This document shows positions 1,409 through 41,407 of a stretch of DNA of 64,000 bases, one piece after another. A program made the translations under genes and the position numbers. The notes beneath the pieces were generated by a model. The model had not been told where the DNA came from. It did no database searches and worked only from the letters and a program-made list of their open reading frames with translations. How positions within the stretch are numbered: position 1 is the stretch's first letter; each line of letters opens with the position of its first letter. The DNA is taken from positions 2,219 through 66,218 of the forward strand of contig CAYYLC010000003.1 in the NCBI GenBank assembly GCA_964472415.1. Direction: 5' to 3'. This DNA is from an uncultured Gammaproteobacteria bacterium. GTDB lineage: Bacteria; Patescibacteriota; Microgenomatia; Levybacterales; GWA1-39-11.

Positions 1409-2488
1409 TCACAGTGTAAGCAAGAGCGCTCCGCCAATTATCAGGAGTAGAATTCCTCCTGTTATTACATAGGTCTGCATAGGTGAGCCAGGATTTGCAA
1501 TAGTTGGGGTAGGCGTGTTTGTTGCAGTCGTAGCAGCTGGCATGGTGGGGGTGAGCGTCGCAGTAATTTGAACATTGATGGGCGTTGCAGTCGGAAGTGT
1601 TCTGGTAGGGGTATTTGAAGGGATATTTGGTGTCGTTGACGGGGAGACGACTACTTCTATTGGGGTCGGCGTGGTTGGTATTGGGGTAGGCGTGTTTGTT
1701 GTGGTTGGTAGAAAACTTGTAGGAGTCGGGGTAAGTTGGGATGTTGGTGAGGGTGTAATAGTAGGTGTAGGAGTTACGGTGAAAGTAGGTAGCGGGGTAA
1801 TTGTGGGGGATAGAGTTATTGTAGGATCAATGGAGGGAGTGGGAGTCCGGGTAATTTCCGTATCTGGATCACTCCCAAAAGTTGTTGTCCAATACCACCA
1901 ACCATTTTGTCCTGGTATGCGTGCGATTCCGATAACTTGCTTGTCTGAGCTCCCCATATTCCGTCTGTGTCCTGGTGAGTTAAACCATGAGGTGAAAGCG
2001 CTTTGTGCGCTTGCGTATGAGTAGGTAATATTTTCTGCTATTGCACCACCCGTATAGCCAAATGCTTGGAATCGTTCTTCTATGTTCCTTCCAAGAGAAT
2101 CGACATGACTAAGTGATTGCCTTTGTGCCATATCATTTGATTGCCAGTCAGCGGCTTCTGTGAGTTTTTGCGATATTTTAAGAGGGGTTTTTAAGCCGAG
2201 ATCGTTTATGCGATATTCGTTAATAATATCTAAAAAATTCCATTCTTCACTATCAAGTTCGGCAGAAGACATTGGTAAAGATTCATCTGTGGAGAATGCG
2301 TTAAAATCTTGAGCTTGGGTAGGCGTAGGGGTAGATAGGGTTTCTGTGGAAGGAGTGTTGTCATTTTTGGAAAAATGAAAAAGAATAATGCTAACAATTC
2401 CAACGAGAATTATTATCCCGACAATAAGGAATTTTTTTTGGATTACTCCCATTAAATTATCATAGTACGAAATAAGGGCTTGCCACAA
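1409..2488 (-). CDS. membrane-anchored CAP/SCP (YkwD-like) domain protein with Thr/Pro-rich linker and C-terminal hydrophobic tail
   Basis: N-terminal TM helix. CAP-family signature FNSPGHRRNM. Long T/P-rich repeats (TPTPT...) followed by a C-terminal hydrophobic segment. Confidence 0.6.
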   Translation of the reverse strand: MWQALISYYDNLMGVIQKKFLIVGIIILVGIVSIILFHFSKNDNTPSTETLSTPTPTQAQDFNAFSTDESLPMSSAELDSEEWNFLDIINEYRINDLGLKTPLKISQKLTEAADWQSNDMAQRQSLSHVDSLGRNIEERFQAFGYTGGAIAENITYSYASAQSAFTSWFNSPGHRRNMGSSDKQVIGIARIPGQNGWWYWTTTFGSDPDTEITRTPTPSIDPTITLSPTITPLPTFTVTPTPTITPSPTSQLTPTPTSFLPTTTNTPTPIPTTPTPIEVVVSPSTTPNIPSNTPTRTLPTATPINVQITATLTPTMPAATTATNTPTPTIANPGSPMQTYVITGGILLLIIGGALLLTL

Positions 2489-2640: not shown

Positions 2641-3552
2641 CTATTGGGTAAGGAGTTTGACACTTTCTGCTTTGCGCGCATTTAAGAATTCTGCAAATGT
2701 GCCGTATTCTCCTTCTGTGGCATCTTGGATTTGTATGAGAAAGAATCTCTTATTGTTCTCAAAAATATTACTAACATCTCCTACTTCAAGAAGAAATACT
2801 TCTTCAGTTTGAAGTGGGGAAAGGAATATGTTTGATTGAGTAAGCATAATATCTTCTAGAAAGTGTAGATTTTGCGATTGTGGGATAGGTGAATTTACTG
2901 TTTCAGAGAGTGTAGATTCGAGTGAGTTTTCTTTTAATGACTCAAAAAAAGAACGGGTTTCTGCTTCTATATCATTTGAAAACACGATATGAGCAGTTCG
3001 AGATGGTGATACGATTGCGGCAATTTTTTCTGCGAGGACCAGGTCTTTTGCGAGTTCTCGGTTCACTGTTACGGTTCTGGAGAGAGTTTCGAGAAGATCC
3101 ATTTTATTACTTATTTCTTGATCAGATACTGTAATTTTTCGCTTCTCTGCTTCGAGCGTAATAATTCGTTTTCTGATTACCTCATCGAGGAGCTCACTCT
3201 GGAGGGCTGAAGGTGCAGTTGTGTATGTTGTGGCGTTTTGCTGTTTCGTGTATTCACGGTCGATGTCTGCTTTTGTTATGGTAGTATTTCCTACTCGTGC
3301 GATTGGTTGCTCTGTGAGGGGTTGTGTATTTGACGCCTGTTGTCTGAGATCTTGTTGGCTATTTATTTGCCAGATAGTTACTGGGAGAGCAAGAAGCACT
3401 ATAGCTCCTAAGATGATTGGTACAAACCGTGCTTTAGAAATGGATGACGATTGTGCTGGAGGTTCTTCATGCTGGCTCTGAGGATTAGTAGCGCGGAATC
3501 GGGTCGGTGTAAGGGGACCGTTAAATGGTGAATTATTTTGTAGGGGATTCAT
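2641..3552 (-). CDS. membrane-anchored SurA N-terminal-domain-like chaperone protein
   Basis: N-terminal TM helix. The segment IARVGNTTITKADIDREY resembles the SurA_N/PpiD chaperone domain. No parvulin domain is recognised. Confidence 0.4.
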   Translation of the reverse strand: MNPLQNNSPFNGPLTPTRFRATNPQSQHEEPPAQSSSISKARFVPIILGAIVLLALPVTIWQINSQQDLRQQASNTQPLTEQPIARVGNTTITKADIDREYTKQQNATTYTTAPSALQSELLDEVIRKRIITLEAEKRKITVSDQEISNKMDLLETLSRTVTVNRELAKDLVLAEKIAAIVSPSRTAHIVFSNDIEAETRSFFESLKENSLESTLSETVNSPIPQSQNLHFLEDIMLTQSNIFLSPLQTEEVFLLEVGDVSNIFENNKRFFLIQIQDATEGEYGTFAEFLNARKAESVKLLTQ

Positions 3553-3594
3553 TCTCTCATTATTTCAAAAAATGCACTAGGAAATCAACTTGCC

Positions 3595-4257
3595 TTACAG
3601 TGCTGGAAGAGGAGTAGCGGGCGAAGTTAGGGGAGGTTCCGTAGTGGTTATAGGTGCAGGTGAGGAAGCGGTCGGAAGCATAATCGTGAGTGGCTGAGCG
3701 GCTCTCAGAAGAGAGTTAGTGCTTTGTAGCGTTCGTACCGTTGTTTTCGGGAGCACAGTAATTTCAGTTGAGTTCAGTGCAGAATAGAGCGTATTAAATC
3801 TGAGCGTTGCAATGGTCCCTGCCCCGCTTACTTCTTCAGCATCAAGGCTCCCAAGCGCAATGATAAATGTTATACGCCCAAGATCTGGTTCTACGGAATT
3901 TACGAGAACTCCTGGATTTTCCCCAAAAAGATTATTCTCAGTCGGTGCTATGGATACGTTAGCGAGGACGGTTGGGTCATAAGAAAGTTGAAGTTCCACG
4001 CCGGAAATATTTTGACCATTCGTATCTACCATAACGTCCACTATATGCGCAGCTGTGGTTGCAGTAGAGGTGTCTATAGACGACGGTGAGAAGGAGATAT
4101 CAGTCTGCGGATTTATAGTGGGAATAATATCTTCCTCAGAAGCAGGCGCTTCAGTAATATCAGGTGGGCTTTGGTTTTCTGTTCGAATCGCGATATACAC
4201 GAGTCCCACGGTAAAAAGAAGTAGGATAACGATAAGAATAGTGGTTTTTTTGGGCAT
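3595..4257 (-). CDS. cohesin domain protein (signal-anchor, T/P-rich C-terminus)
   Basis: N-terminal TM helix. The cohesin hallmark LQLSYDPTVLANVSI and the GAGTIATLRF beta-strand pattern resemble clostridial cohesins. Confidence 0.55.
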   Translation of the reverse strand: MPKKTTILIVILLLFTVGLVYIAIRTENQSPPDITEAPASEEDIIPTINPQTDISFSPSSIDTSTATTAAHIVDVMVDTNGQNISGVELQLSYDPTVLANVSIAPTENNLFGENPGVLVNSVEPDLGRITFIIALGSLDAEEVSGAGTIATLRFNTLYSALNSTEITVLPKTTVRTLQSTNSLLRAAQPLTIMLPTASSPAPITTTEPPLTSPATPLPAL

Positions 4258-4306
4258 GGCTCCTTTATCTTCTTATAACTGAGTGATTATTGTCAAGTAA
4301 TTTGTG

Positions 4307-5824
4307 TTACCGCTGTGTTGCTCCTTGCCTATTAGCAAAACCTCTTTGCATTGCGGTAAGGTCAATGGTGTCAATTTTTCCATTTTCGTTCAAGTCTGCT
4401 CGAGTTTTTGCATCATCCGTACAAATCGCTTCATCTTTGTAGCATGCGATAAAAAGATTGTAATCTGCAAGATCGAGGATGTCATTGCTATTTCCAGTTC
4501 TGTCAATATCTCCGGAAATAAGAACTATCTGTGAGAGCTCTGTTGTGCTATTCGTTGTGATAAGTGGAAAGCCTGGGATTTCTGAGTAGAGTGTGTTATC
4601 AAGTCTCACCAGTACAAGATAATTTGCAGTAGGGAGACTTCCGAGATTAACAGTTCCTTTGTAGGTAAATGTGGTGGGATCAAACGTAAGTGTTCCTATT
4701 GCGGGGTTTTGATTTCCTGTTGCGAGATTCGTCACGTCTGTTCCGGTGGCAGATTCAACGCGCACTTCCACCTGGCGAGTAGTTCGCACGGGGTTTTCTG
4801 TATTATTCAGAGTGCCTGAGCCGGATGCTGCTGTATTTGATCCGATTCCCGGGAGTGCAAGGCTAAGAGAGATTCTTGTTCCACCGGCAGTTGTTGGCTG
4901 GCTTGTTACGGTCGGCATGGGGGTGCTGCTACTTTTTGGTTTTTGTGTTATAGAAGGAGCAGTTTTTGTTGGAATCGGGGTAGGAGTTGAGATAGGTGAT
5001 GATTGTATTGAAGTAGGTGTCGAGTTAATAGGTGGTTGTGTTGGGGTAGGAGTGGGTCTTTCCGGGCTTGTGCAGATACCATCTTCACATTTATTACTTG
5101 CACAGAGGTATGGGACGGGGATCCCTCCAAGCTTACAGGTGCATCCCCCAGGACGGTTTGCACTATTACTGCTACAGCTATTCCATCCTCCAGAAGGGGC
5201 AGTAGTGGGTGTAGGCAGTGGGTTGTCACTGAGAGTGCACAGTCCTGTTGCTGGATGGATCGAATACCTTGCGCCGCAACAGCCAAACCCTGCTGGAGGT
5301 TTTTCTCCCGCTCTCCCACATTGGTTTGTGTTTCCACCAGTGTCACCGTTATCTTTTTCTCCATTTTCTGAAGAGCCGCAAACAACTTCAGATGTGTACG
5401 ATGTGGAGGTTAGTTGTTTACCGCTTTTGTCGGTTGCTGAGACTTGAAATATATATATTGCTCCTTGCTCGAGTCCGTTTGCTGCATAGGAAGTTTGATC
5501 AATTGCTTGGATATTTATGTTTTTGATGGGATTTTGCCCTTCTTTAACATAGTGAACAGTTTGGATTGCAATAGCAGATCTTGGACTTGCTTGCGTCCAA
5601 CGTACTATGAGATTTCTGCAATTTGATCCTTCAGTGACGGATATGATTGAAGGAGGAGTAGTGATGCTTCCAGATGCAGCGCGTTGTCTCAGGTCTTGCT
5701 GTTGTTGGGTGAGTATTATGGTTATGGGAAGTGCAAGTGCGAGGATAAGTCCACCGATAACCATAGCTGTCCTTTGCCAGGAGTGGAAGAAAGCACCATC
5801 AATAAGGCTACGAATAGATCTCAT
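4307..5824 (-). CDS. secreted FN3-like, Cys-rich protein with C-terminal dockerin-like repeats
   Basis: Signal-anchor, an FN3-like segment, a Cys-rich block and a T/P-rich linker. The C-terminal GDIDRTGNSNDILDLADYNL...DLNENGKIDTIDLTAMQRGF matches duplicated dockerin Ca-binding repeats. Confidence 0.55.
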   Translation of the reverse strand: MRSIRSLIDGAFFHSWQRTAMVIGGLILALALPITIILTQQQQDLRQRAASGSITTPPSIISVTEGSNCRNLIVRWTQASPRSAIAIQTVHYVKEGQNPIKNINIQAIDQTSYAANGLEQGAIYIFQVSATDKSGKQLTSTSYTSEVVCGSSENGEKDNGDTGGNTNQCGRAGEKPPAGFGCCGARYSIHPATGLCTLSDNPLPTPTTAPSGGWNSCSSNSANRPGGCTCKLGGIPVPYLCASNKCEDGICTSPERPTPTPTQPPINSTPTSIQSSPISTPTPIPTKTAPSITQKPKSSSTPMPTVTSQPTTAGGTRISLSLALPGIGSNTAASGSGTLNNTENPVRTTRQVEVRVESATGTDVTNLATGNQNPAIGTLTFDPTTFTYKGTVNLGSLPTANYLVLVRLDNTLYSEIPGFPLITTNSTTELSQIVLISGDIDRTGNSNDILDLADYNLFIACYKDEAICTDDAKTRADLNENGKIDTIDLTAMQRGFANRQGATQR

Positions 5825-9700: not shown

Positions 9701-10378
9701 TTATTGGAGAAGTTGATTTTGTTGATTGAGTCTTTCTTGCGCATCTGGTGCAAGAAGAGGAGAACTTGGTGCAAGAATTACGTCTAGATTTACAAATCCT
9801 ACAGCAAGCACTTTCCCATCGGCTTCATTTATAGTTGTTTCATCAGAAATAGTAATTGATGTGGTGTTGCTCGTATCGGGATGAGGAGTGAATCGTATAT
9901 CTGCTATTTTTCCCTCGCCGCTTATAACATTATCGCTTCCAATGACTACTTCAAGGTATCCTTTATTTTGATCCTCATTGATGATAAATACTTTTGTTTG
10001 GGGACCGAAAAGTGGCTGGTCGGCAGCTGGTTCTACAGATATATTTCGGATAAGAGTAGGGTTGTATTTGAGAGCGAGGCGGACGCTTTTTATATAGTTG
10101 CCCTTTACATTCATAAATAGTGCAGCTATTTGCTGCCCCACTATTTTTGAATTTGCAAGATCTATGATAGGAGGGTCAAAATATAACTCTGCGTCATATG
10201 ACGTTTCCTGCGCTGTTTTTTGAGGAGTTTTGTCTTCAGATGGGGACTCATTATTTTTTGAAAAAAATGCAAATATCAAGATAACAGTAATGATTAGGCT
10301 TAGGATCGTAATTCCTATAATGATTAGTGTCCTTCTATTTTTTAGTATTTCAATAGTCATAATAGCTAATTTCTGCAT
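9701..10378 (-). CDS. cohesin-like secreted protein (signal-anchor)
   Basis: N-terminal TM helix. LALKYNPTLIRNISVEP and GEGKIADIRFTP parallel the cohesin core of the 3595..4257 protein. Confidence 0.45.
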   Translation of the reverse strand: MQKLAIMTIEILKNRRTLIIIGITILSLIITVILIFAFFSKNNESPSEDKTPQKTAQETSYDAELYFDPPIIDLANSKIVGQQIAALFMNVKGNYIKSVRLALKYNPTLIRNISVEPAADQPLFGPQTKVFIINEDQNKGYLEVVIGSDNVISGEGKIADIRFTPHPDTSNTTSITISDETTINEADGKVLAVGFVNLDVILAPSSPLLAPDAQERLNQQNQLLQ

Positions 10379-12123
10379 TCACCGTATCTACTTGAAAATG
10401 GTTTTCTACAAAAACTTCCAAACTTCCCATCTTTGGTATTTCTACAGCTGATGTTATCCTCACAACATTTTGAGTCAGCACTTCTGACGCAGGCAACAGA
10501 GCACTCAGCCTTAGGATCTGTTGGATTTACGACTGTGCAGCGTGAAGGGTCATTTGTTCCACCTTGGGGCATTTTTGTGGGAGAGAGTTGATCCGTAATG
10601 GTTGGATTTGTACTTGAGCTTGGAGGATTACAGGTTTGAAATCCTGCGTTATTGATACAGACAGAACCAGTATTACAACATGGGGCGCTTCCGTAGCATG
10701 CATTGCCATCCGCTACGCATGATGGTTGAGAGGTTGCTGTTGAGTATGAGATTGATTGATAGTTATTCTCTTCATTTGTCTCACGAATTGATTCAGAAGA
10801 GTCAGCCCATGCGATCATGGTGAAAGACCCTATCTCATCTGGTGCTGAGACAATAGGAGGACTATTGAGCGAAACGTTTTTTCTTACTTCTTCGTTCTGT
10901 GAAAGATTTACGCTAAATGTCTGATTTTTTGTGGCGCATTGGGATGGGTCTCCGGGACATTGTGATTTGATCCCAGACACAGATCCATTCCTGAAAATTG
11001 ATACCGTGATATTGCCTTTATACGCATCTCCATTATTTTTAATAACCACAGTTGCAGTCATAGATTCTTTCGGGCTGTATGTGCTTTTATTTATTTCGAT
11101 TCTTGGGAGTTGGATGTCATAATTTGCTGATGGTGCAGGGGTAGGATTAGGGGCTGATACATCAGGACAGCGATAGAAGTATTGGGTGATTGCAGAGCCA
11201 GTCGTGACATCACAATACGGATCGGCGCCGCTTGAGTCATAGTCGTATCGAGCTACCCATTGAGCATTTTCTTTTGCACATGTAGGATTTCCGACAGGTG
11301 TCATAGTGGAAAGAGTCGGCGCAGCGTCTCCACAATATCCCACACCAGGAACTGGAGGGATTGTGGGTTGAGCAGGTGCAGAGTTGTCTGGTGGTATTGG
11401 CTGTTGTGGGGGCGCTGTGTCACCGCTGTTTCCATCACCACTATTGTCTGGAGCAATAAGTTGACAGCAGGTAAGACCGACTTGGCAGCTCGAATTTCTC
11501 CCTGAATATGATACTCTACCTGCTGAACAGGAGGTTTGGCATTCGTATTCTCTTTCTCCTCCCCTCAGGCTATTTCCTATATTGACACAAGTGTTTGCGG
11601 TGGGTGGGAGGGGGACTACTGGGGGATCAGCCGGAGGAGGCGTGGAGTCTTGAGAAGCATAACAGCATGTTAATCCAGTCCCGCAAGTAAAGGATGATGC
11701 GGTATGTCCAGCTGGGCATAAGTTGCCTGGATAACAGGTATATGAGTAATTGCCCACAGGACAGTTATTAACAGGTGCTGGTGCTTTCGTGGGGGCCGGC
11801 GGGTCAGGAATATATGGAGGAAAGTTTGGGATATCGCCACCTGGGTCGTGGGCACATATGCCATCTATGCAGATCCCAAGCTCACAGTCATCAGCTTTAT
11901 CTCCATTACCATTTAGGTCTTCACAGCTGTACCCAACTCTCTTTTTGCATTCATCTTTTACGCACGTTTTTACGCCTCTACAGTAGATTCCGCAGACATT
12001 ATTTTGAGTAGTAGATTGTTGTGCAGAAGCGGTGTCTGTAGAGAGAGTTATAATCCCGAAAAAAATCAAAGCAAGAAGAACGATAATATTTTTACACCAC
12101 GTAACTTCAGATAATGACTTCAC
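10366..12123 (-). CDS. large secreted cysteine-rich protein (putative adhesin)
   Basis: Signal peptide and more than 50 Cys in repeated Cys-rich modules. A CARDB-like beta segment ATVVIKNNGDAYKGNITV. Pro-rich linkers. Confidence 0.5.
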   Translation of the reverse strand: MKSLSEVTWCKNIIVLLALIFFGIITLSTDTASAQQSTTQNNVCGIYCRGVKTCVKDECKKRVGYSCEDLNGNGDKADDCELGICIDGICAHDPGGDIPNFPPYIPDPPAPTKAPAPVNNCPVGNYSYTCYPGNLCPAGHTASSFTCGTGLTCCYASQDSTPPPADPPVVPLPPTANTCVNIGNSLRGGEREYECQTSCSAGRVSYSGRNSSCQVGLTCCQLIAPDNSGDGNSGDTAPPQQPIPPDNSAPAQPTIPPVPGVGYCGDAAPTLSTMTPVGNPTCAKENAQWVARYDYDSSGADPYCDVTTGSAITQYFYRCPDVSAPNPTPAPSANYDIQLPRIEINKSTYSPKESMTATVVIKNNGDAYKGNITVSIFRNGSVSGIKSQCPGDPSQCATKNQTFSVNLSQNEEVRKNVSLNSPPIVSAPDEIGSFTMIAWADSSESIRETNEENNYQSISYSTATSQPSCVADGNACYGSAPCCNTGSVCINNAGFQTCNPPSSSTNPTITDQLSPTKMPQGGTNDPSRCTVVNPTDPKAECSVACVRSADSKCCEDNISCRNTKDGKFGSFCRKPFSSRYGECRN

Positions 12124-12162
12124 CTATTTTATTGAAACCCTTTTTTTCCATGGTGTCAATAT

Positions 12163-12681
12163 TTAGCATCCAGTAGGATTGCCATCGTAGGTCGCAATAT
12201 CAGCTTCATTGCTAACAAGTCGTATCCGCCAGCTATTGGTGTTAAATTGAAGGCTATTGGGGAGGAGAAAAGTTTGGTTCATCGTTCCGCCAGGAAAGTC
12301 AAGGGTAATAATTTGCTGGTAATTTCCAGAATTCTCAACTTCTAGAATAATATTTCCTGTATCGCTCGAGGCAATTGTGGCTGTTGCTTCCATCCTGGGT
12401 TCTTTGGCGGTTTGACATCCGAGGAGTGAGACGGTAATCGTTTCATTTGTATTATCTTCCGGTGCTTGGGTGGGTGTCAGGGTGAGAGTGGCGGATGGAG
12501 AAGATGAGGGTGTGGTCGAGATGTCTGGGAGATACTCTCCTTCTGAAGGGTTGGCAGGAGTTAGCTCAAAATCACTAAATCCTGAAACCATCATTATGGA
12601 GAAGAGTAGTATTGCGATGAGAATTACCGCAACAAACGCAAACCCAGATTCAGGATTATTATTCTGAAAATATTTTTTCAT
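12163..12681 (-). CDS. small membrane-anchored secreted protein
   Basis: N-terminal hydrophobic anchor (PESGFAFVAVILIAILL), a T/P/S linker and a C-terminal beta-rich domain. No E at +5, so not called a type IV pilin. Confidence 0.4.
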   Translation of the reverse strand: MKKYFQNNNPESGFAFVAVILIAILLFSIMMVSGFSDFELTPANPSEGEYLPDISTTPSSSPSATLTLTPTQAPEDNTNETITVSLLGCQTAKEPRMEATATIASSDTGNIILEVENSGNYQQIITLDFPGGTMNQTFLLPNSLQFNTNSWRIRLVSNEADIATYDGNPTGC

Positions 12682-12683
12682 AT

Positions 12684-13622
12684 CTATGAATTTCCGCCTA
12701 CGGAGTTACAGATCTTTGTTGAAATTTCGTTGTAGATTTGATCAAGGTTTTCAGGGTTTGGTGTTTCATAATAGCTGTCTTCAGATGCTATGCGTTGCAT
12801 CATATCTTTTAAGTCATTCTGAAAACAGGTGTCTCGAGAGTCAAATAATGCAATTGCGAATATTCGAATCCCTGAGTTTTTGATTTGCTGGGCTAGATCT
12901 CCGCCCGAAATTGAAGTATTTGTAGGGTCTTGTGTAGTTTCAAAGCATCTATTTCTATCGGGCGAGCATGCGGGTGCTGTGCAGGTTCGGAAAATGGATT
13001 CAGGGATTCCATCCGAAAGGAATACGAGATTGTGTTGTTTGTCAGGAAATCGTTGTTGTGCTGTTATGAGGCGTTGTATGGCGAGGTTAAATGCGCTTCT
13101 TGTTTGAGTAGCACCACTTGCGTGGAGAGAAGTGATGGCAGATCTCATTTGTGTGCTGTTGTTTGAGAATAAATCAATAGGTACGTTTTCAGTCACGTTT
13201 TGTGAATAGCTAATAAGCCCTGTGACAGAGCTATCTCCCATTTGGTCAAGGAACCTATTCAGTGCTTGTTTGAGATTTGGTAATTTATTACCAAACTCCA
13301 TGGATCCTGAGCGATCTACGAGAAGTGCTGCGGATGCTTGACCTTTACATTCTTTAAATCTAATGGTTTTTAACTGTAGGTTTCCTCTGGTATTATCAAG
13401 TTCACGGAGCGATTCTTCATCTATCTCATATACTGCTTCAGGATTTTCTGGTGTAGAAAGTTGTTCTTTTGGAAAAGGATTTCCTCCTGTTAAAAAGAAT
13501 GCTCCTCCAATAACAACTCCTAAGAATGCAAGGAATATAGCCTTGCTTCCCGAGAGGAGGGAGGTTGGAGATGAAGCTCCACCAAAATTATAAAATCCAT
13601 TCTTCTTATTTCTATTCGCCAT
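12684..13622 (-). CDS. membrane-anchored von Willebrand factor A (vWA) domain protein
   Basis: N-terminal TM helix. MIDAS motif LLVDRSGSM (DxSxS) with downstream T and D residues. BatA/B-like architecture. Confidence 0.7.
   Translation of the reverse strand: MANRNKKNGFYNFGGASSPTSLLSGSKAIFLAFLGVVIGGAFFLTGGNPFPKEQLSTPENPEAVYEIDEESLRELDNTRGNLQLKTIRFKECKGQASAALLVDRSGSMEFGNKLPNLKQALNRFLDQMGDSSVTGLISYSQNVTENVPIDLFSNNSTQMRSAITSLHASGATQTRSAFNLAIQRLITAQQRFPDKQHNLVFLSDGIPESIFRTCTAPACSPDRNRCFETTQDPTNTSISGGDLAQQIKNSGIRIFAIALFDSRDTCFQNDLKDMMQRIASEDSYYETPNPENLDQIYNEISTKICNSVGGNS
13417..13563. repeat. exact 147-bp direct repeat, copy 1 (5' coding region of vWA gene)
   Basis: Identical by eye to 14277..14423. 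It encodes the shared signal-anchor segment SLLSGSKAIFLAFLGVVIGGAFFLTGGNPFPKEQLSTPENPEAVYEID. Confidence 0.85.
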
Positions 13623-13624
13623 AG

Positions 13625-14470
13625 TTATGATCCTACAGAGCTACAGATTTTTTCCCCAATTTCCTTATAAATATTCTCCAGTTCAGCTCCAGTAGGAGAG
13701 TGGTAGTAATGATTAGGCGAAGAAGCAAGCCTTTGTAGTAATCGTGAGCCTGAGTCATTGGCGTTAGGAAAAATCCCAATGGTATAGACAGTCACGCCCA
13801 TGTTTTTAATTTCATCAGCTGGATTTGGGTCAAATAATGTAGGATCTTGTTCGGGAGGCACTGGTATCCCGTCAGACAGAAAAATGAATGAAAACTTTCT
13901 GTCGGGGTATTGTGGGAGCGCCTCATCGAGGCGAGCTTTTGCATATGCGAGTGCATCATGGGTGGGCGTTTCCCCTCCTGGTGATAGTCCATTTATACGA
14001 TCAGAAATTATACTCTTTACATCACGATAATAAGAAACTGGAATATCAGTAGTCCTGCTAGCACTGTTAAAAGACTGAATGCCGATTACAGAATTATCAC
14101 TAAGGTTATTAGTAAAAGTGAGTACAGCGTTTTTCATTTGATTTATCTTTTGCCCTCTCATAGATCCAGATCTATCAAGCATCATTGTTACTGCTGATAC
14201 TCCACCGCACTCCTTAAATCCGATAGTTCGAAGCTGTAAATTTACCCTTCCACTTTCATCAGGTTGTAAGGCACTCTCATCTATCTCATATACTGCTTCA
14301 GGATTTTCTGGTGTAGAAAGTTGTTCTTTTGGAAAAGGATTTCCTCCTGTTAAAAAGAATGCTCCTCCAATAACAACTCCTAAGAATGCAAGGAATATAG
14401 CCTTGCTTCCCGAGAGGAGGGAGCCTTTGGGGTGTCCGACAATTGCGCCCCCGCGTTTGTTCTTTGCCAT
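13625..14470 (-). CDS. membrane-anchored vWA domain protein (paralog of upstream gene)
   Basis: MIDAS motif MMLDRSGSM. The N-terminal 49 aa are identical to the neighbouring paralog. Confidence 0.7.
   Translation of the reverse strand: MAKNKRGGAIVGHPKGSLLSGSKAIFLAFLGVVIGGAFFLTGGNPFPKEQLSTPENPEAVYEIDESALQPDESGRVNLQLRTIGFKECGGVSAVTMMLDRSGSMRGQKINQMKNAVLTFTNNLSDNSVIGIQSFNSASRTTDIPVSYYRDVKSIISDRINGLSPGGETPTHDALAYAKARLDEALPQYPDRKFSFIFLSDGIPVPPEQDPTLFDPNPADEIKNMGVTVYTIGIFPNANDSGSRLLQRLASSPNHYYHSPTGAELENIYKEIGEKICSSVGS
14277..14423. repeat. exact 147-bp direct repeat, copy 2
   Basis: Identical to 13417..13563. The flanks diverge immediately at 13416/14276 and 13564/14424. Confidence 0.85.
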
Positions 14471-14623
14471 ACGGTTTTATTGTATGGATAAATTAAGAGT
14501 TAAGTCAAATAGATTTATCGTATTTGCGCTTGCGTATTGAGGTATTCTTTAGTATACTTGCTCGCATCACGCACATTCGGCGTAAAATCCTGAAACATCA
14601 AGCCGAGTGGAGGAAAAAGGATT

Positions 14624-15373: not shown

Positions 15374-15826
15374 ATGAAAGTATCAGCATCGGATATTAAA
15401 AAACTGAGAGAAATGACATCTGCGGGATTTGCAGATTGTAAGCAAGCTTTAGAAGCGGCAAGTGGTGATCTTAAAAAAGCAGAAGAGATTCTGAAAGAAA
15501 AAGGGATTGCAAAGGCTGCAAAAAAAGGCGACCGTGCAACTGGAAGTGGAGTAGTGGAGACATATGTGCATTTAAATGGACGAATTGGAGTTGCGGTAGC
15601 GCTACTTTGTGAGACAGATTTTGTTGCACGAACAGATGAATTCAAGAATCTCGCACACGAGATTGCTATGCAGATTGCTGCGATGAATCCAGAGAGTAAA
15701 GATGAGCTCTTGAAGCAGGATTATATCCGTGATGGAGGAAAGACTATCGAGGGTCTGATCAAAGAGGCAATCGCGAAGCTCGGTGAGAATATTCAGCTTG
15801 GAGAGTTTTCAAGAATTGCTATTTAG
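15374..15826 (+). CDS. tsf: elongation factor Ts (short form)
   Basis: The N-terminal UBA-like IKKLREMTSAGFADCKQAL and the core GRIGVAVALLCETDFVART. Immediately downstream of rpsB. Confidence 0.85.
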   Translation: MKVSASDIKKLREMTSAGFADCKQALEAASGDLKKAEEILKEKGIAKAAKKGDRATGSGVVETYVHLNGRIGVAVALLCETDFVARTDEFKNLAHEIAMQIAAMNPESKDELLKQDYIRDGGKTIEGLIKEAIAKLGENIQLGEFSRIAI

Positions 15827-21455: not shown

Positions 21456-22310
21456 ATGAATAAAAAAATTACTGTAGTATCTGTTCTGATTCTTGTGATA
21501 GTGGGGGTGGTGATTTGCATATTATTAAATTTGGAAACGGTTCGAGCACTTTCTCAAAAATCTGTAGAGATTGTAGAGGGGGCTATTGGGATGCGAGTGA
21601 ATACTTCTGGACCTTTAAGAAAGGAAGGTGATGATGCGGGATCAAATCTTACTGTGCAGGGAGTAATCAGAGAGACAAATCGTCGCAGGGTAGAGGCAGG
21701 TCTTCCTCTGCTTTCTGAGAATGTGTTGTTGGATCTTTCTGCTCAGAGAAAGGTTGATGATATGTTTAAGAGGCAATATTTTGAACATGATGCACCGACT
21801 GGAGAAAGCGCGGGAGATTTGGTAGTAGATGCGGGGTATGAATTTATAACAGTAGGTGAAAATCTTGCATTGGGAAATTATCAGAATGATATGATTCTTG
21901 TCCAAGCATGGATGGATAGTCCAGGACACAGGGAGAATATTTTGAAAAATTCCTATACAGAGATTGGAGTTGCGGTAGCGCGTGGGATGTTCGAGGGAAA
22001 AGAAACATGGCTTGCGGTGCAGCATTTTGCAAAGCCATTATCTGATTGTCCTGCAATTAATGCTAATCTTAAGTCTCAAATCGACTCTCATAATTCTAAA
22101 ATTGAGAGTATGAAATCTGATTTGGAACGCCGTAAGATTTATCTCTCAGAAAAACCTATAACTCAGGAGGAAGCAAGTGATTACAATAGGCAGGTCGATG
22201 AATTTAATGCGCTCGTAAATGAATATAATGCATTACTTTCTGAGACGCGAGATTTTGTTTCTCAATATAACTCACAAATACAGGATTTTAATAGTTGTGC
22301 AAAAGAATAG
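21456..22310 (+). CDS. membrane-anchored CAP/SCP (YkwD-like) domain protein with C-terminal coiled coil
   Basis: N-terminal TM helix. CAP signature WMDSPGHRENIL...EIGVAV. A coiled-coil tail. Confidence 0.65.
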   Translation: MNKKITVVSVLILVIVGVVICILLNLETVRALSQKSVEIVEGAIGMRVNTSGPLRKEGDDAGSNLTVQGVIRETNRRRVEAGLPLLSENVLLDLSAQRKVDDMFKRQYFEHDAPTGESAGDLVVDAGYEFITVGENLALGNYQNDMILVQAWMDSPGHRENILKNSYTEIGVAVARGMFEGKETWLAVQHFAKPLSDCPAINANLKSQIDSHNSKIESMKSDLERRKIYLSEKPITQEEASDYNRQVDEFNALVNEYNALLSETRDFVSQYNSQIQDFNSCAKE

Positions 22311-28867: not shown

Positions 28868-29821
28868 CTAGATTCTTTCGCACGTTATTTTTGGAAAGAA
28901 GAAAAAGTAGTGCTGCGTATATTCAAGATAGCAGACAGTTCTGCTGAATGGGAAGAATCCAAGAAATCTTTTCATGGTATAAGGGTTAATAGGTGTAGGG
29001 CTAGGAGGGGTTACAGAGGGGGTGGACGTTGGTGAAGGGTTTTCGGTTGGGGTTATTGTTGGTGTGCTGGTGGGAGTAGAAGTCGGTTGACTTGTTGTCG
29101 TTGGTACTATCGTCATAGTTGGGCTAGTAGTGGGTGTAGGCGTTTCTGTAGGGTTTGTAGGAGTTGAGCTTTCAGGATTTTCTGGGGTACTATTCGTATT
29201 TTGTGGATTTGATAGAGTGGGAGAAGAGTGTCTTACAAAGTCGTTTGCGTTGTTATCTGTGTCTTCTCCATTTCCAAGGTTATTATCTGTTCCAGATGGC
29301 GCCATGCTTTCTGAAGTAGATGTGTCGTGCGCTTTTCGTTCAATACTTCTATTTGAAATAGGGAGAGAGACTGTAACCTCTTCTCTTGTACTTGCTTCTC
29401 CGAATCCTACCAAATCAATAGTATTATTATTTTCATCTCTGAGAATTATGGAATTATTATCAGCGATATTTTGGTCAGTGTACGTGATGTCCGGTGTAGT
29501 CGTGTCGTCATAGTTTTCATGAGCGATCAGCATAAATCCATGTGGTTGAATAGTTCCGCTAAGGGTTGCGATAAGCTGCTCTTCAGCATCTATTGATTGA
29601 GTCTTTCTCATTACTTTCCATCCGGAAAGATCCATTTCATTTGTTGTGGGATTGTAGAGTTCTACAAATTCATCAGTGGTGGTGCTCCCTGCTGCTTGAA
29701 TTTCAGAGATCACAACATGGTTCGCAATAGCATAAGCGATATTTGGTGAAGTCGACTGAATGGAGGATATAATTAAAAGAATTATAAGAGGAGCGAGAGT
29801 AACACTGATTATTTTCCTCAT
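28868..29821 (-). CDS. secreted lamin-tail-domain (LTD) protein with T/P-rich tail
   Basis: Signal peptide. HVVISEIQAAGSTTTDEFVELYNPTTNEMDLSGWKV matches the LTD consensus. T/P/S-rich C-terminal region. Confidence 0.6.
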   Translation of the reverse strand: MRKIISVTLAPLIILLIISSIQSTSPNIAYAIANHVVISEIQAAGSTTTDEFVELYNPTTNEMDLSGWKVMRKTQSIDAEEQLIATLSGTIQPHGFMLIAHENYDDTTTPDITYTDQNIADNNSIILRDENNNTIDLVGFGEASTREEVTVSLPISNRSIERKAHDTSTSESMAPSGTDNNLGNGEDTDNNANDFVRHSSPTLSNPQNTNSTPENPESSTPTNPTETPTPTTSPTMTIVPTTTSQPTSTPTSTPTITPTENPSPTSTPSVTPPSPTPINPYTMKRFLGFFPFSRTVCYLEYTQHYFFFFPKITCERI

Positions 29822-38515: not shown

Positions 38516-39061
38516 GTGAAGATAATGAAAAAAATATTAATTAGCGTATTTACGATTCTTGCAGTATCTGCTGCAACTTTCGGTGCAACTCAGGCTTTAT
38601 TTTCAGACGAAGAGACTAGTATTGGAAATACTTTTTCTGCAGGTACTCTTGATTTAACAATTGATGGTGTTAATGACAATGTTGTTAAATTTAATGCTTC
38701 AAATATGAGGCCTGGAAGTCAGCCACATGGTGCATACACTCTTAAAAACGAGGGTAGTATAAACGGGAAACTTAATCTAAGCGATATCAAAGTTTACGGT
38801 GGAACTTTAGGTGAGGTTGTTAACGTAGCTTTGTTTGTAGATAGAGATGGAAATGGATGGTGGAGCACAGGAGATGTTTCTATTTATAGTGGAAAGGTTT
38901 CTGATATTCCGTCAAGCATCACTTTCAACGAGCAGTTGAATGCAGGTGCATCAACAAAAATAGTTACAATATTCAATTGGTGGTCAACACCAAATGATAA
39001 CGATTATCAGGGTGAATCAATGATGGTTGATTTTACCTTCGAATTGTTGCAAAACTTATGA
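38516..39061 (+). CDS. TasA/camelysin-like secreted protein with SipW-cognate signal peptide
   Basis: GATQALFSDEETSIGNTFSAGTLDL matches the SipW-cognate motif (TasA/CalY: ..AxFSDxExS.GNTF.AGTLDL). RBS AGGAGGTGAAG. Confidence 0.65.
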   Translation: MKIMKKILISVFTILAVSAATFGATQALFSDEETSIGNTFSAGTLDLTIDGVNDNVVKFNASNMRPGSQPHGAYTLKNEGSINGKLNLSDIKVYGGTLGEVVNVALFVDRDGNGWWSTGDVSIYSGKVSDIPSSITFNEQLNAGASTKIVTIFNWWSTPNDNDYQGESMMVDFTFELLQNL

Positions 39062-39606
39062 AAAAAATAGGATTTATAAAAAACACAATTTATTCGATAG
39101 GGCTATCGCTTCTGATTGTCATTGCGGTGGTTCTTTTTGCGGGAAAATTCGGGATAGGTGGAGTTAGGGCATTGGTTGTCCAGTCGGGTTCTATGGAGCC
39201 TACGATCCACACAAAGAGTGTCGTGATAACCGTGCCTAGTAGTTTTTACGGTGAAAATGACGTAATTACATTCAAGCAATCCGGCCGTGAGAATGTGTTG
39301 GTTACCCACAGAATCGAAAGCACCATCACAACTCCAAATGGAAATGAATTCGTCACGAAAGGTGACGCGAATGAAGAAGCAGATGGCGAAACAATTCCTG
39401 CAGGGGACGTTATAGGAAAAGTTGTCTTTACGATTCCATTTATAGGTGCCCTAATATCATTTGCTCAGACACAGATAGGATTTCTGATACTGGTCATCAT
39501 CCCTGCTGTTGCGATCGTCTATAGCGAAATATTGAATATTAAAAATCAGATAGTGAGGTTTTATGGAGATAGAAAGGGTAGGCGTCTAGTGAGGCCATTA
39601 GAATAA
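39058..39606 (+). CDS. sipW: signal peptidase I, SipW (archaeal/ER-type S26B) family
   Basis: Catalytic Ser box VVQSGSMEPT. N-terminal and C-terminal TM helices. Length 182 aa. Overlaps the upstream stop (ATGA). Confidence 0.8.
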   Translation: MKKIGFIKNTIYSIGLSLLIVIAVVLFAGKFGIGGVRALVVQSGSMEPTIHTKSVVITVPSSFYGENDVITFKQSGRENVLVTHRIESTITTPNGNEFVTKGDANEEADGETIPAGDVIGKVVFTIPFIGALISFAQTQIGFLILVIIPAVAIVYSEILNIKNQIVRFYGDRKGRRLVRPLE

Positions 39607-39608
39607 TT

Positions 39609-40469
39609 ATGAAAGAAAGAATTTTAAAACTGATACTGCTTTTGATTTTACCCTTGGTTCCATTTACGGGTATATCTAACGCGCTGCTATATGACACGGA
39701 AAGTTCTATGAACAATAGTTTTTCTGCAGCAAGTCTAGACATCACTCTCTTGGATGATGGCGGTGATGAGATTGATGGTCTGCTTTTTGACAAAAACAAA
39801 TTAAAAAGTAATGAAGAGCTAATCCAGAAAATCAAAGTCTCAAATTCCGGCACACTGGATTTTTATTACCATCCAGAATTTGAACTAAAAAATGGAAATC
39901 TAGATGTTTGTGAAGAGCTATCATTGAAAGCCTCGAAAGAAGGTAGCGAGGTCTATGAAGGTTCGCTGAAAGACTTTAATCTCGCAACTATGTCAGCGCA
40001 GATCACAAATAGCATTGACGAGTGGGAGTTTGCGCTTACCCATGAGAATAGTGGTGAGAGTCTACAAGGAGAAATTTGCGAATTCAATATCGCATTTCTG
40101 GCATACCAAAACATCGATAATACTGGATTTTCCGATACAGACAAAGTAGGAAGTAAAGTAGGAATTGCATATGAGCCAGTACTAACAGCATATCACAACT
40201 CTTCATCCCACAAATTCATCTTTACGCTATCTGGCCTTACGAATTTTACGGGGTTTGATTATAGCCTGATCTACGATACAGACACGATAACAGGCTTTGC
40301 AAGCGGGTCCGCATCATTAAGTGGCGAGACCAGCAAGGTAACTGAGATAGATTTGGGAACGGAGTCATATGGTGTACTTACTCCACAAATAAATCCGCAT
40401 AATTTCAACCTAAATATCAATCTTGTTGATATAGATGGTGATGCACTTACGCTTTCCGAGCAATTGTAG
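39609..40469 (+). CDS. second SipW-cognate secreted protein
   Basis: Signal peptide followed by ALLYDTESSMNNSFSAASLDI, the same cognate motif. Confidence 0.55.
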   Translation: MKERILKLILLLILPLVPFTGISNALLYDTESSMNNSFSAASLDITLLDDGGDEIDGLLFDKNKLKSNEELIQKIKVSNSGTLDFYYHPEFELKNGNLDVCEELSLKASKEGSEVYEGSLKDFNLATMSAQITNSIDEWEFALTHENSGESLQGEICEFNIAFLAYQNIDNTGFSDTDKVGSKVGIAYEPVLTAYHNSSSHKFIFTLSGLTNFTGFDYSLIYDTDTITGFASGSASLSGETSKVTEIDLGTESYGVLTPQINPHNFNLNINLVDIDGDALTLSEQL

Positions 40470-40474
40470 CTACA

Positions 40475-41407
40475 ATGAAAAATTTCCTAGTTTCGATCAT
40501 CTGCCTCATCATTTTTTTGGGTTTTGGCAGCTTTTCATATGCATATGATCTAGATGTCCAGTGTGATGACACTAGGTGTAATCTTTCATCTCGCGATCCG
40601 ATCTTTAAAGGTGATGACATGTGGACTCCTGGAAAATCTGTAGAAAAAAGTGTCGGTATCAAAAATACTGGAGAAAGCGAAAAGGAAATCTATCTCAGGA
40701 TAAAGACCAACGAATCTACAGGAGAGCTTGATGAGCATATGTTAATTAGTCTCATGCAGCAAGGAGCGGGAAGTCCTATCTGGACAGGGACATTGAAAGA
40801 GCTGATTGAAGACGAAACAGTGCTGATCGAGGATTTTTCCAAGGACGAACAAATCGAACTTATAATTTCTGCGCAAATGGATAGCGCAGCATCAAATGAG
40901 CTCCAGGGTGGATCTTCAGTATTTGATTTCGGATTCGGATTTGAGGGGGATTTGTCTGATGATAACGGGAGCGAGGAAGATTCAGATGAAAACGATTCTA
41001 ATTCAAATTCTAACGAAGATGATAGTGTGCAGGGTTCCATAGGGCAAATCCTTGATGGCGTTAATACTTTTATATTTGGCTCTCAACCACAAGCCTTAGA
41101 GCAACAGGGAGACGTTGCTGGGGAAAGTTCTGACGAAAAGAGTGACAAATCAGATATTATGGGGATTTCTGATGAATGTTTAGACAATAATATTTGGGTA
41201 GTTTTTCTTGCATTTCAAATTATTGGAGGAGGTTTGTATTTCTTGAAAAAGCTTACTATGAAGATTTCTATATTTGTCAATGGAATCGTTGCGGGAGTAG
41301 TTTCTCTGTATTTCTATTTCAGCTTGTGCTTTCTATGGCCTATACTAATTTCTCTCGGGATTTTCGTCTTTTGGCTCTTCGTAGCAAGAAGGAAATTGGT
41401 ATCGTAG
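40475..41407 (+). CDS. secreted acidic protein with C-terminal membrane anchor (TasA-like beta region)
   Basis: Signal peptide. An IKNTGESEKEIYL beta-sandwich-like segment paralleling the 38516 gene. A D/E/S-rich linker. Two or three C-terminal TM helices. Confidence 0.45.
   Translation: MKNFLVSIICLIIFLGFGSFSYAYDLDVQCDDTRCNLSSRDPIFKGDDMWTPGKSVEKSVGIKNTGESEKEIYLRIKTNESTGELDEHMLISLMQQGAGSPIWTGTLKELIEDETVLIEDFSKDEQIELIISAQMDSAASNELQGGSSVFDFGFGFEGDLSDDNGSEEDSDENDSNSNSNEDDSVQGSIGQILDGVNTFIFGSQPQALEQQGDVAGESSDEKSDKSDIMGISDECLDNNIWVVFLAFQIIGGGLYFLKKLTMKISIFVNGIVAGVVSLYFYFSLCFLWPILISLGIFVFWLFVARRKLVS

Follow-up and report, generated by a model that had tools for sequence, protein, structure and literature searches.

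The closest described counterparts of the genes analyzed here are extracellular proteins with a von Willebrand factor A (vWA) domain and cohesin-dockerin pairs. The former include receptors and adhesins such as ANTXR2/CMG2, TEM8, integrin alpha-M, TRAP, Mfa5, SpaC, and RrgA, as well as the A1 and A3 domains of VWF, which carry a disulfide joining the N-terminal and C-terminal ends. Links between vWA domains and pili are found in PilY1, which acts with minor pilins, in PilB of Streptococcus sanguinis, which is a modular pilin with a vWA domain, and in TadG. The cohesin-dockerin pairs include cellulosomal and noncellulosomal systems (SdbA/OlpB of Clostridium thermocellum and ScaB of Acetivibrio cellulolyticus). 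To our knowledge, the attachment of bacteria of the candidate phyla radiation (CPR, or Patescibacteria) to partner cells is largely obscure beyond a few cultivated Saccharibacteria, no member of the Levybacteria is in culture, and no cellulolytic capacity is known in the CPR. Here, we analyze five consecutive genes at positions 9701 to 14470 of a 64,000-nucleotide (nt) stretch of contig CAYYLC010000003.1 (assembly GCA_964472415.1), hereafter the window, from Candidatus Levybacteria (Microgenomates). No description of this locus was found in the literature on cohesin, dockerin, vWA, or Cys-rich proteins of CPR/Patescibacteria. We read it, with moderate confidence, as a lineage-specific cell-surface cluster made of two or three separable modules; its products would probably serve in contacts with other cells or with surfaces and be under diversifying pressure. 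The five genes are the following:

13625..14470, minus strand: vwaA, 281 amino acids (aa), with a type II signal anchor, a transmembrane helix at aa 23 to 39, and a vWA domain at aa ~90 to 280
12684..13622, minus strand: vwaB, 312 aa, a signal-anchored vWA paralog
12163..12681, minus strand: p172, 172 aa, with a transmembrane helix at aa 10 to 33, a Pro/Thr/Ser-rich stalk, and a predicted all-beta domain of ~100 aa
10366..12123, minus strand: cys585, 585 aa, with a GTG start, a predicted Sec-secreted mosaic disulfide-rich protein
9701..10378, minus strand: coh225, 225 aa, with an N-terminal anchor and a cohesin domain at aa 88 to 189 (nt 9812 to 10117)

A preliminary description of this DNA, made from the sequence alone, had presented the locus as five adjacent anchored or secreted genes with near-zero spacing in a reduced-genome lineage. 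Both points stand: the lineage is Levybacteria, within the CPR, and the five consecutive open reading frames (ORFs) lie where that description had placed them, with gaps of 2 nt (vwaA/vwaB), 2 nt (vwaB/p172), 39 nt (p172/cys585), and -13 nt (cys585/coh225, where the start of coh225 overlaps the end of cys585). The proteins vwaA, vwaB, p172, and coh225 have a short positive N terminus followed by a single hydrophobic helix and no signal-peptidase motif, while cys585 has a Sec signal peptide with an ASA cleavage motif at aa 33 to 35. The first four are thus very likely N-in/C-out signal anchors and the fifth very likely carries a cleavable Sec signal. Since the anchors follow the positive-inside pattern, the vWA domains would lie outside the cell, and all five proteins are very likely exported or surface displayed rather than intracellular. 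The paired cysteines of the ectodomains are predicted to form disulfides. CPR genomes are enriched in MdbA-like thiol-disulfide oxidoreductases and VKOR (bioRxiv 10.1101/335083), which makes extracellular oxidative folding plausible. In the organization that we propose, a first module (vwaA, vwaB, and p172) would consist of uncleaved signal anchors in the cytoplasmic membrane bearing disulfide-clamped ectodomains on flexible stalks. In the second (cys585 and coh225), a Sec-secreted mosaic protein would be freed by signal peptidase and retained by a cotranslated membrane-anchored cohesin.

Domains of the vWA type are also common in MoxR, chelatase, and defense systems, and those of the locus gave weak partial matches to the cobaltochelatase and CobT vWA models. 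This would fit an intracellular or regulatory system involving a MoxR-type AAA+ ATPase, a chelatase-like partner, or a defense module, an explanation that we consider highly improbable and largely refuted. The chelatase matches are far under the curated cutoffs (26.8 bits versus 779), DUF58 appears in the vWA proteins at E = 0.24 only and within the vWA domain itself, and none of the five proteins matched PADLOC at E ≤ 0.01. Neither MoxR nor DUF58 proteins were seen among the ORF translations of the window (those of at least 110 aa over the 64 kb, read by eye, about one-third of them checked with Pfam) or in the flanks of four related loci (precomputed Pfam labels). The signal anchors also argue against an intracellular role, as do the Cys pairs conserved in the family and the structural neighbors presented below, the nearest of which are extracellular. 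The preliminary description would have given up the attachment role had the Cys-rich and vWA proteins matched well-characterized intracellular functions, and the Pfam, NCBIfam, and PADLOC scans revealed no such match. The analogy that it drew with Bat and TadG proteins fared less well. The window proteins share with BatA/BatB and TadG a vWA domain on an N-terminal membrane segment and the presence of tandem vWA paralogs, but they lack the MoxR ATPase, the DUF58 protein, the TPR BatC/D partners, and the multitransmembrane BatA-type anchor of the Bat systems, as well as the TadE/Tad N-terminal domain (PF07811/PF13400) and the nearby tad genes typical of TadG. PF13400 was matched only in a distant homolog, P0029 (E = 2.7e-4).

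The two vWA proteins, already described as containing a MIDAS (metal ion-dependent adhesion site), match Pfam VWA (PF00092) well over its gathering score of 23.8 (vwaA, 70.1 bits, E = 3.6e-19; vwaB, 62.9 bits, E = 5.8e-17), and both show the DxSxS...T...D pattern. The MIDAS of vwaA is complete (D99-R-S-G-S103, T168, D200), the equivalent residues are found in vwaB, and D99, S103, T168, and D200 are invariant over the alignment of the 24 family members. The AlphaFold2 (AF2) model of vwaA, built on this 24-sequence alignment, shows a transmembrane helix, a disordered linker, and a vWA domain with a pLDDT (predicted local distance difference test) of >90 over aa 90 to 280. When the model was compared to the PDB with Foldseek, the nearest structures were ANTXR2/CMG2, TEM8, the I-domains of integrin alpha-M and alpha-X, TRAP, Mfa5, and SpaC (E ~1e-12 to 1e-9), with a probability of 1.00 and a target-normalized TM-score of ~0.8 to solved vWA/I-domains. 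The modeled fold is therefore nearest to extracellular adhesive vWA/I-domains. The window proteins share with ANTXR2/CMG2, TEM8, integrin alpha-M, TRAP, Mfa5, SpaC, and RrgA the Rossmann-like alpha/beta vWA fold, a full MIDAS, a presumably outward-facing domain, and a Cys pair: within the family, Cys88 never varies and Cys276 rarely does, they bracket the vWA domain, and they parallel the N-to-C disulfide of VWF A1/A3. By analogy, divalent-cation-dependent ligand binding is the most likely activity of vwaA and vwaB, whose ectodomains would bind an acidic residue of the ligand through the MIDAS cation, like integrin I-domains and the vWA domains of anthrax toxin receptors.

The differences from these adhesins are nevertheless large. 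Sequence identity to the ANTXR2/integrin-type and pilus-tip vWA adhesins is just 15 to 22%, and the architecture is minimal (a transmembrane helix, a linker, and one vWA domain), with no LPXTG, Cna-B or stalk domain, pilin module, or lipobox. A sortase-pilus tip adhesin of the RrgA/SpaC type finds no counterpart in proteins that have neither LPXTG nor a C-terminal hydrophobic tail nor, by Pfam, Cna-B; their C termini read ...KICSSVGS and ...KICNSVGGNS. The window family also has an element without counterpart in those adhesins, the motif LQLxTxxFKxC, which is invariant ahead of the vWA domain (aa 78 to 88 in vwaA and 82 to 92 in vwaB). As LQLxTxxF(K)xC, it is present in every vWA family member, ~50 residues past the start of the transmembrane helix, and also in proteins without a vWA domain encoded at these loci (L016:8184-9251, L020:14021-15031, and L019:1263-1670), where it is followed by a Pro-rich linker. 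The segment is modeled with a pLDDT of <50. It seems to be an element of its own close to the membrane, perhaps a site of binding or processing.

The vWA family is small, with ~25 clusters in a database of 5.8 billion sequences, and its named members are all Candidatus Levybacteria. Within the window, vwaA and vwaB are 45% identical overall (BLASTP). An insertion with four cysteines lies right behind the MIDAS Asp of vwaB (SDGIP-ESIFRTCTAPACSPDRNRCFETTQDPTNT) and is absent from vwaA. Orthologs of this B type, carrying the same insertion, were found in P0027, L008, L011, L019, and L021, so the duplication that gave rise to the A and B types is old. With a Cys-rich loop beside the MIDAS in one type and not in the other, vwaA and vwaB would probably bind different ligands.

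Despite their divergence, the two genes contain an exact direct repeat of 147 bp:

14277..14423, minus strand: copy 1 of the repeat, in vwaA (100% identity)
13417..13563, minus strand: copy 2 of the repeat, in vwaB (100% identity)

The repeat encodes the transmembrane helix and the proximal linker, and the DNA on either side is not alignable. This block is a gene-conversion tract between vwaA and vwaB, a process by which the membrane anchors of the two proteins would stay identical. Tandem vWA paralogs of two other genomes also have anchors more similar than their ectodomains (63% versus 35% identity in L011 and 74% versus 44% in L021), while the tandem pairs of L008 and L019 show no such difference. 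An exact look-up of cys585 retrieved a 16-kb contig of the same organism from an independent metagenome assembly in ENA (ERZ27247346, k141_1968893; L001 in our numbering), one end of which falls inside the 147-bp repeat. Such a break is expected of a genuine repeat that exceeds the k-mer of 141, and short-read assemblies will often be fragmented at this position. The same kind of look-up with vwaA gave no match in the contig index.

The second module starts with cys585, for which the preliminary description had announced more than 50 cysteines in repeated modules. We counted 41, of which 40 are in the mature protein. They fall into five Cys modules (8+6+6+4+6+8 Cys) with Pro-rich linkers between them, and every mature module has an even number. 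Repetition was found for one 6-Cys module, which is duplicated (aa 121 to 154 and 179 to 220, z = 4.8 versus shuffles), but not for the others, which are unrelated to each other. The CARDB domain suspected earlier is present in the middle of the protein, above the gathering score:

10756..11097, minus strand: CARDB domain (PF07705), Ig-like, at aa 343 to 456 of cys585 (Pfam E = 7.2e-8, 33.0 bits versus a gathering score of 22.7)

A search of 1.84 billion representative proteins returned just 12 at E ≤ 1e-3, all of them partial except cys585 itself and some of them spanning the CARDB segment, and no match was found among PDB sequences. Hence, cys585 is close to an orphan. We compared by eye the Cys spacing of the 6-Cys modules with that of knottins, hevein, and CBM1; Pfam gave no support to any of these, and we make no claim on this point. 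The GC fraction of the window peaks in the 2-kb bin 10001 to 12000, which consists almost wholly of cys585 coding sequence (0.445 versus mostly ~0.36 to 0.41 elsewhere). This peak could result from a composition rich in Pro, Gly, Ala, and Cys or from a foreign origin.

The last gene of the locus, coh225, had been noted as cohesin-like, and this was confirmed by Pfam Cohesin (PF00963), which it matches with 33.3 bits (E = 6.4e-8; gathering score, 24.1). Eight of the 10 members of the family have such a match. The family profile retrieved solved cellulosomal cohesins from the PDB (3l8q at 1.7e-4), and 17 of the 18 matches were cohesins, so that the cohesin assignment, drawn from sequence profiles, is solid for the family as a whole. 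A second module of the same kind, oriented alike, is found 4 kb from the five-gene locus, at 3595 to 5824:

4307..5824, minus strand: big505, the cargo of the second module, with fn3 (5e-6) and a C-terminal type I dockerin at aa 425 to 502 (nt 4319 to 4552)
3595..4257, minus strand: coh220, a transmembrane-anchored single cohesin, 49 nt downstream of big505

Among the cohesins compared, coh220 is the nearest relative of coh225 (58 bits), and it matches Pfam Cohesin with 34.3 bits (E = 3.2e-8). The dockerin of big505 is recognized by a lineage-specific hidden Markov model (HMM) with 120.9 bits. It remains under the gathering score of Pfam Dockerin_1 (16.6 bits), which its ortholog L020_707 exceeds (26.2 bits). 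A SurA-like chaperone of the peptidyl-prolyl isomerase type is encoded after coh220 (2641 to 3552), and the trio of big505, coh220, and chaperone (2641 to 5824, minus strand) is syntenic in L010.

The window and its relatives contain nine pairs in which a gene for a large secreted protein precedes one for a transmembrane-anchored cohesin of ~210 aa, with gaps of -19 to +53 nt, and a cargo gene adjoins 9 of the 10 cohesin genes. The cargos form two families, one Cys-rich (cys585, L008_701, L009_628, L014_539, L014_422, and L020_584) and one of the fn3/PKD type (big505, L010_640, L020_707, and L015_463). Those of the second family end with a type I dockerin made of two Ca-loop repeats. In cys585, no Dockerin_1 was found at E ≤ 1 and none by the lineage-specific dockerin HMM; the protein has one lone Ca-loop-like stretch (DLNGNGDKADD, aa 69 to 80), inside its N-terminal Cys module. 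We also looked for one universal docking module in the Cys-rich cargos by phmmer/hmmsearch iteration, and the candidates were rejected: a 4-Cys 'GYCGD...YFYxCP' module is present in some members but not all, and the Pro-rich linkers gave noise. In eight of the nine pairs, the nearest relative of the cargo and that of the cohesin came from the same other pair (Mantel test; rho = 0.36; P = 0.015), which shows that cargo and cohesin are passed on together but is not proof of binding.

The pair formed by big505, with its dockerin, and coh220, with its cohesin, almost certainly works by tethering, as predicted from these two domains. From the equivalent gene order, we infer that coh225 may retain a secreted partner on the cell surface, either cys585 or another one. 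Both modules resemble the cellulosomal and noncellulosomal pairs in their Cohesin matches and in the position of the cargo gene next to the anchor gene, and big505 also does so in its dockerin. They differ in the anchor, an N-terminal transmembrane helix instead of SLH domains or sortase, and in having one cohesin per protein and no multicohesin scaffoldin. Moreover, the scanned cargos matched no family of carbohydrate-active enzymes, unlike cellulosomal cargo, and cys585 is without dockerin. A broader proposal, which we advance only tentatively, is that Levybacteria, and perhaps Microgenomates, possess a minimal cohesin-based surface display that has nothing to do with the breakdown of cellulose and in which anchored single cohesins capture the cargo encoded upstream. 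One class of cargo would be captured through a canonical dockerin and a second, disulfide-rich and quickly evolving (cys585-like, with 24 to 55 Cys), through an undescribed dockerin-independent interface, and together with paired MIDAS vWA receptors, their anchors kept alike by gene conversion, they would form a reassortable attachment surface of an episymbiont. If dockerin-less cargos do bind their cohesins, the range of cohesin recognition is wider than described.

The remaining member of the first module, p172, has no Pfam or NCBIfam domain, its family profile retrieved nothing under E = 0.07 from PDB sequences, and word-indexed homolog searches with p172 and with cys585 each returned the query alone. 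The family alignment built from relatives shows two conserved cysteines, one at the start of the beta-domain and the other in a C-terminal PTGC. Foldseek comparison of its AF2 model (pLDDT 64) with the PDB gave no match at E < 1e-3 and no pilin among the matches. Its top matches, UNC119, RhoGDI, and carbohydrate-binding modules, are generic beta-sandwiches that we deemed uninformative.

In the homologs of p172, a polar leader is conserved; its last residue is Gly, and behind it come F/M and a stretch of ~21 hydrophobic residues (G|FAFVA..., G|FSMVT...). This leader resembles a prepilin signal minus Glu5, position +5 being Ala, and most members of the vWA family have [KR]-G two to four residues ahead of the hydrophobic core. 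Furthermore, the equivalent locus of one relative encodes, at its glyA-proximal end, a 107-aa ORF (L014:16610-16933) with a canonical prepilin signal (KG|FSMIEV; Pfam N_methyl, 2.3e-4), which is the sole direct pilin signature among the examined loci. Type IV pili are encoded in CPR genomes, along with divergent families of pilins that have one N-terminal transmembrane segment (10.1101/335083). These observations raise the alternative that the locus is accessory to a type IV pilus, where p172, with or without the vWA proteins, would have a divergent class III leader processed by the prepilin peptidase and would act as a minor pilin carrying a vWA adhesin at the pilus tip. With PilY1/PilC and S. 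sanguinis PilB, the window has in common the MIDAS vWA module and, in the neighboring p172, a pilin-like Gly-Phe leader, but not the beta-propeller of PilY1, the pilin module, Glu5/N_methyl, or the pilus-assembly genes. The class III signal peptide G|FxxxE (N_methyl/TIGR02532) was matched by neither p172, vwaA, nor vwaB, which have no Glu at +5. A Pro/Thr-rich stalk comes directly after the helix of p172, not an alpha1-C helix packed on a globular head as in pilins, and the AF2 models, that of p172 with low confidence, show a short transmembrane helix, a disordered linker, and an independent domain, with no apparent pilin fold. The pilus genes that the preliminary description proposed to look for are likewise not in sight: no pilus-assembly gene (PilB/C/D/M/T) was seen in the window ORF translations or in the Pfam-labeled flanks of the four related loci. 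We therefore regard a pilus accessory role as improbable.

Further evidence for a modular surface cluster came from comparative genomics. The five genes lie between the divergent rpsB-tsf genes and glyA, and a scan of GTDB species representatives gave 15 loci from metagenome-assembled genomes of Levybacteria, Microgenomates, and Patescibacteria. The synteny from rpsB through vWA to glyA was found in ~14 Levybacteria/Microgenomates loci, with variable genes in between. All loci of sufficient length have a vWA gene in the interval from the rpsB-tsf-rseP-frr-recR block to glyA; in most of them, it is the immediate divergent neighbor of rpsB. In at least six lineages, the vWA gene is followed by p172 homologs. 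The variable content comprises one or two vWA genes, a p172 homolog, Cys-rich proteins of 422 to 701 aa with 24 to 55 Cys, cohesins of ~210 aa, a family of ~340 aa sharing the anchor motif, and, in one genome, the canonical prepilin gene. The nearest relative, L010 (GCA_964450885), has flanking proteins that are 77 to 81% identical to those of the window, but its vwaA is just 53% identical. At this site, it encodes one vWA protein and a truncated p172 homolog of 100 aa, while vwaB, cys585, and coh225 are absent and the cohesin module is elsewhere. Thus, the site is fixed and its content evolves fast and reassorts, as expected of a variable surface-protein site and not of an obligate five-part apparatus. 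The single adhesion apparatus of the preliminary description, taken as a conserved five-gene unit, does not survive this comparison across ~14 genomes.

Nine of these relatives (L007, L008, L010, L012, L014, L015, L018, L020, and L021) are titled "uncultured Gammaproteobacteria bacterium," yet they belong to Levybacteria/Microgenomates by synteny and by 55 to 81% identity of housekeeping proteins; the titles are probably a placeholder or mislabeled taxonomy. The product of the neighboring tsf gene (EF-Ts; 15374 to 15826, plus strand) has just 150 aa, and all relatives have the same short form. The EF-Ts of typical bacteria is about twice as long.

The arrangement of the locus suggests that the five genes are cotranscribed, probably from the intergenic region of 153 bp between the divergent genes rpsB and vwaA, where a candidate operon promoter was found:

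14479..14508 (read 14508 to 14479), minus strand: promoter-like site TTGACT-18-TACAAT, a match to the consensus only (10 of 12 positions)

This prediction is based on the spacing of the genes, the promoter-like site, and the scan for minus-strand terminators, which found none convincing between the five genes (with scan counts at the shuffled level). The gaps of 2 and -13 nt further suggest translational coupling. Downstream, glyA lies on the same strand as coh225, 65 nt apart.

The turnover at the rpsB-glyA site also bears on an alternative to a role in contact, namely, that unrelated exported proteins (for cell wall or S-layer organization, nutrient or metal capture, or toxin or antimicrobial activity) have accumulated at a recombination-permissive spot beside rpsB and that adhesion is not their role. 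The content of the site differs in nearly every genome, down to the lone vWA gene and truncated p172 homolog of L010, and cargo plus cohesin modules are found at other positions too, all of which agrees with accumulation. So do the knottin/hevein/CBM1-like spacing, which (as a by-eye reading without Pfam support) is also seen in toxins and carbohydrate binders, and the many further exported proteins of the window (CAP, lamin-tail domain [LTD], and camelysin-like). Chance gathering is harder to reconcile with the vWA gene kept at this site in every examined locus and followed by p172 homologs in at least six lineages, with the adjacency of cargo and cohesin in 9 of 10 cases at overlapping or near-zero gaps, and with the short gaps that suggest translational coupling. 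We consider accumulation a doubtful explanation, though one that deserves more credit than the pilus.

The interpretation of the locus as a surface cluster facing other cells or surfaces is favored because its nearest structural neighbors are adhesive, its proteins diverge rapidly, and its modules turn over. By analogy with these neighbors, an attachment role of the five proteins is plausible. Several points weigh against this interpretation. A cargo gene is missing upstream of one of the cohesin genes (L008:4368-5012). The Cys-rich cargos, including cys585, have no dockerin by Pfam or by the lineage-derived HMM, and their tethering would proceed with no identified docking module. Covariation of cargo and cohesin would also be expected from the plain coinheritance of neighboring genes. 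The single-sequence AF2 model of p172, with its helix, disordered stalk, and separate eight-stranded beta-sandwich, is of low confidence (pLDDT 64), and the number of promoter-like and terminator matches in the region is not above the shuffled expectation. Finally, host attachment, the candidate role raised in the preliminary description, would be an extrapolation from the analogy of the domains.

These are well-characterized but ordinary lineage-restricted surface proteins, built from known domain families in a recurring modular pattern. The locus supplies candidates suited to expression, namely, the two vWA ectodomains with their MIDAS, the anchored cohesin, and its putative Cys-rich cargo, and it provides a comparative frame, since a fixed site with fast-changing content and a cargo/cohesin pair can both be searched for across CPR genomes.

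Other genes of the window encode exported or envelope proteins. Two N-terminally anchored CAP/SCP proteins are found at 1409 to 2488 (minus strand; Pfam CAP, 2e-15) and at 21456 to 22310 (plus strand; 1.4e-14), and they match the transmembrane family of CAP-domain proteins reported to be almost unique to CPR (10.1101/335083). A four-gene cluster at 38516 to 41407 (plus strand) starts with a member of the camelysin/TasA family (Peptidase_M73, 1.4e-13), followed by an ORF that resembles a SipW-type signal peptidase by eye, with no Pfam match at E ≤ 1e-3. The cluster encodes two more secreted proteins, with TasA-like N-terminal 'SAxSLDI' motifs, and may be devoted to fiber formation or SipW-dependent secretion. 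Two further genes relate to the envelope or to exopolymers: one encodes a secreted LTD protein (28868 to 29821, minus strand), and the other encodes a 725-aa fusion of a polysaccharide deacetylase and a family 2 glycosyltransferase (48326 to 50503, minus strand), which resembles chitin and poly-N-acetylglucosamine synthases.

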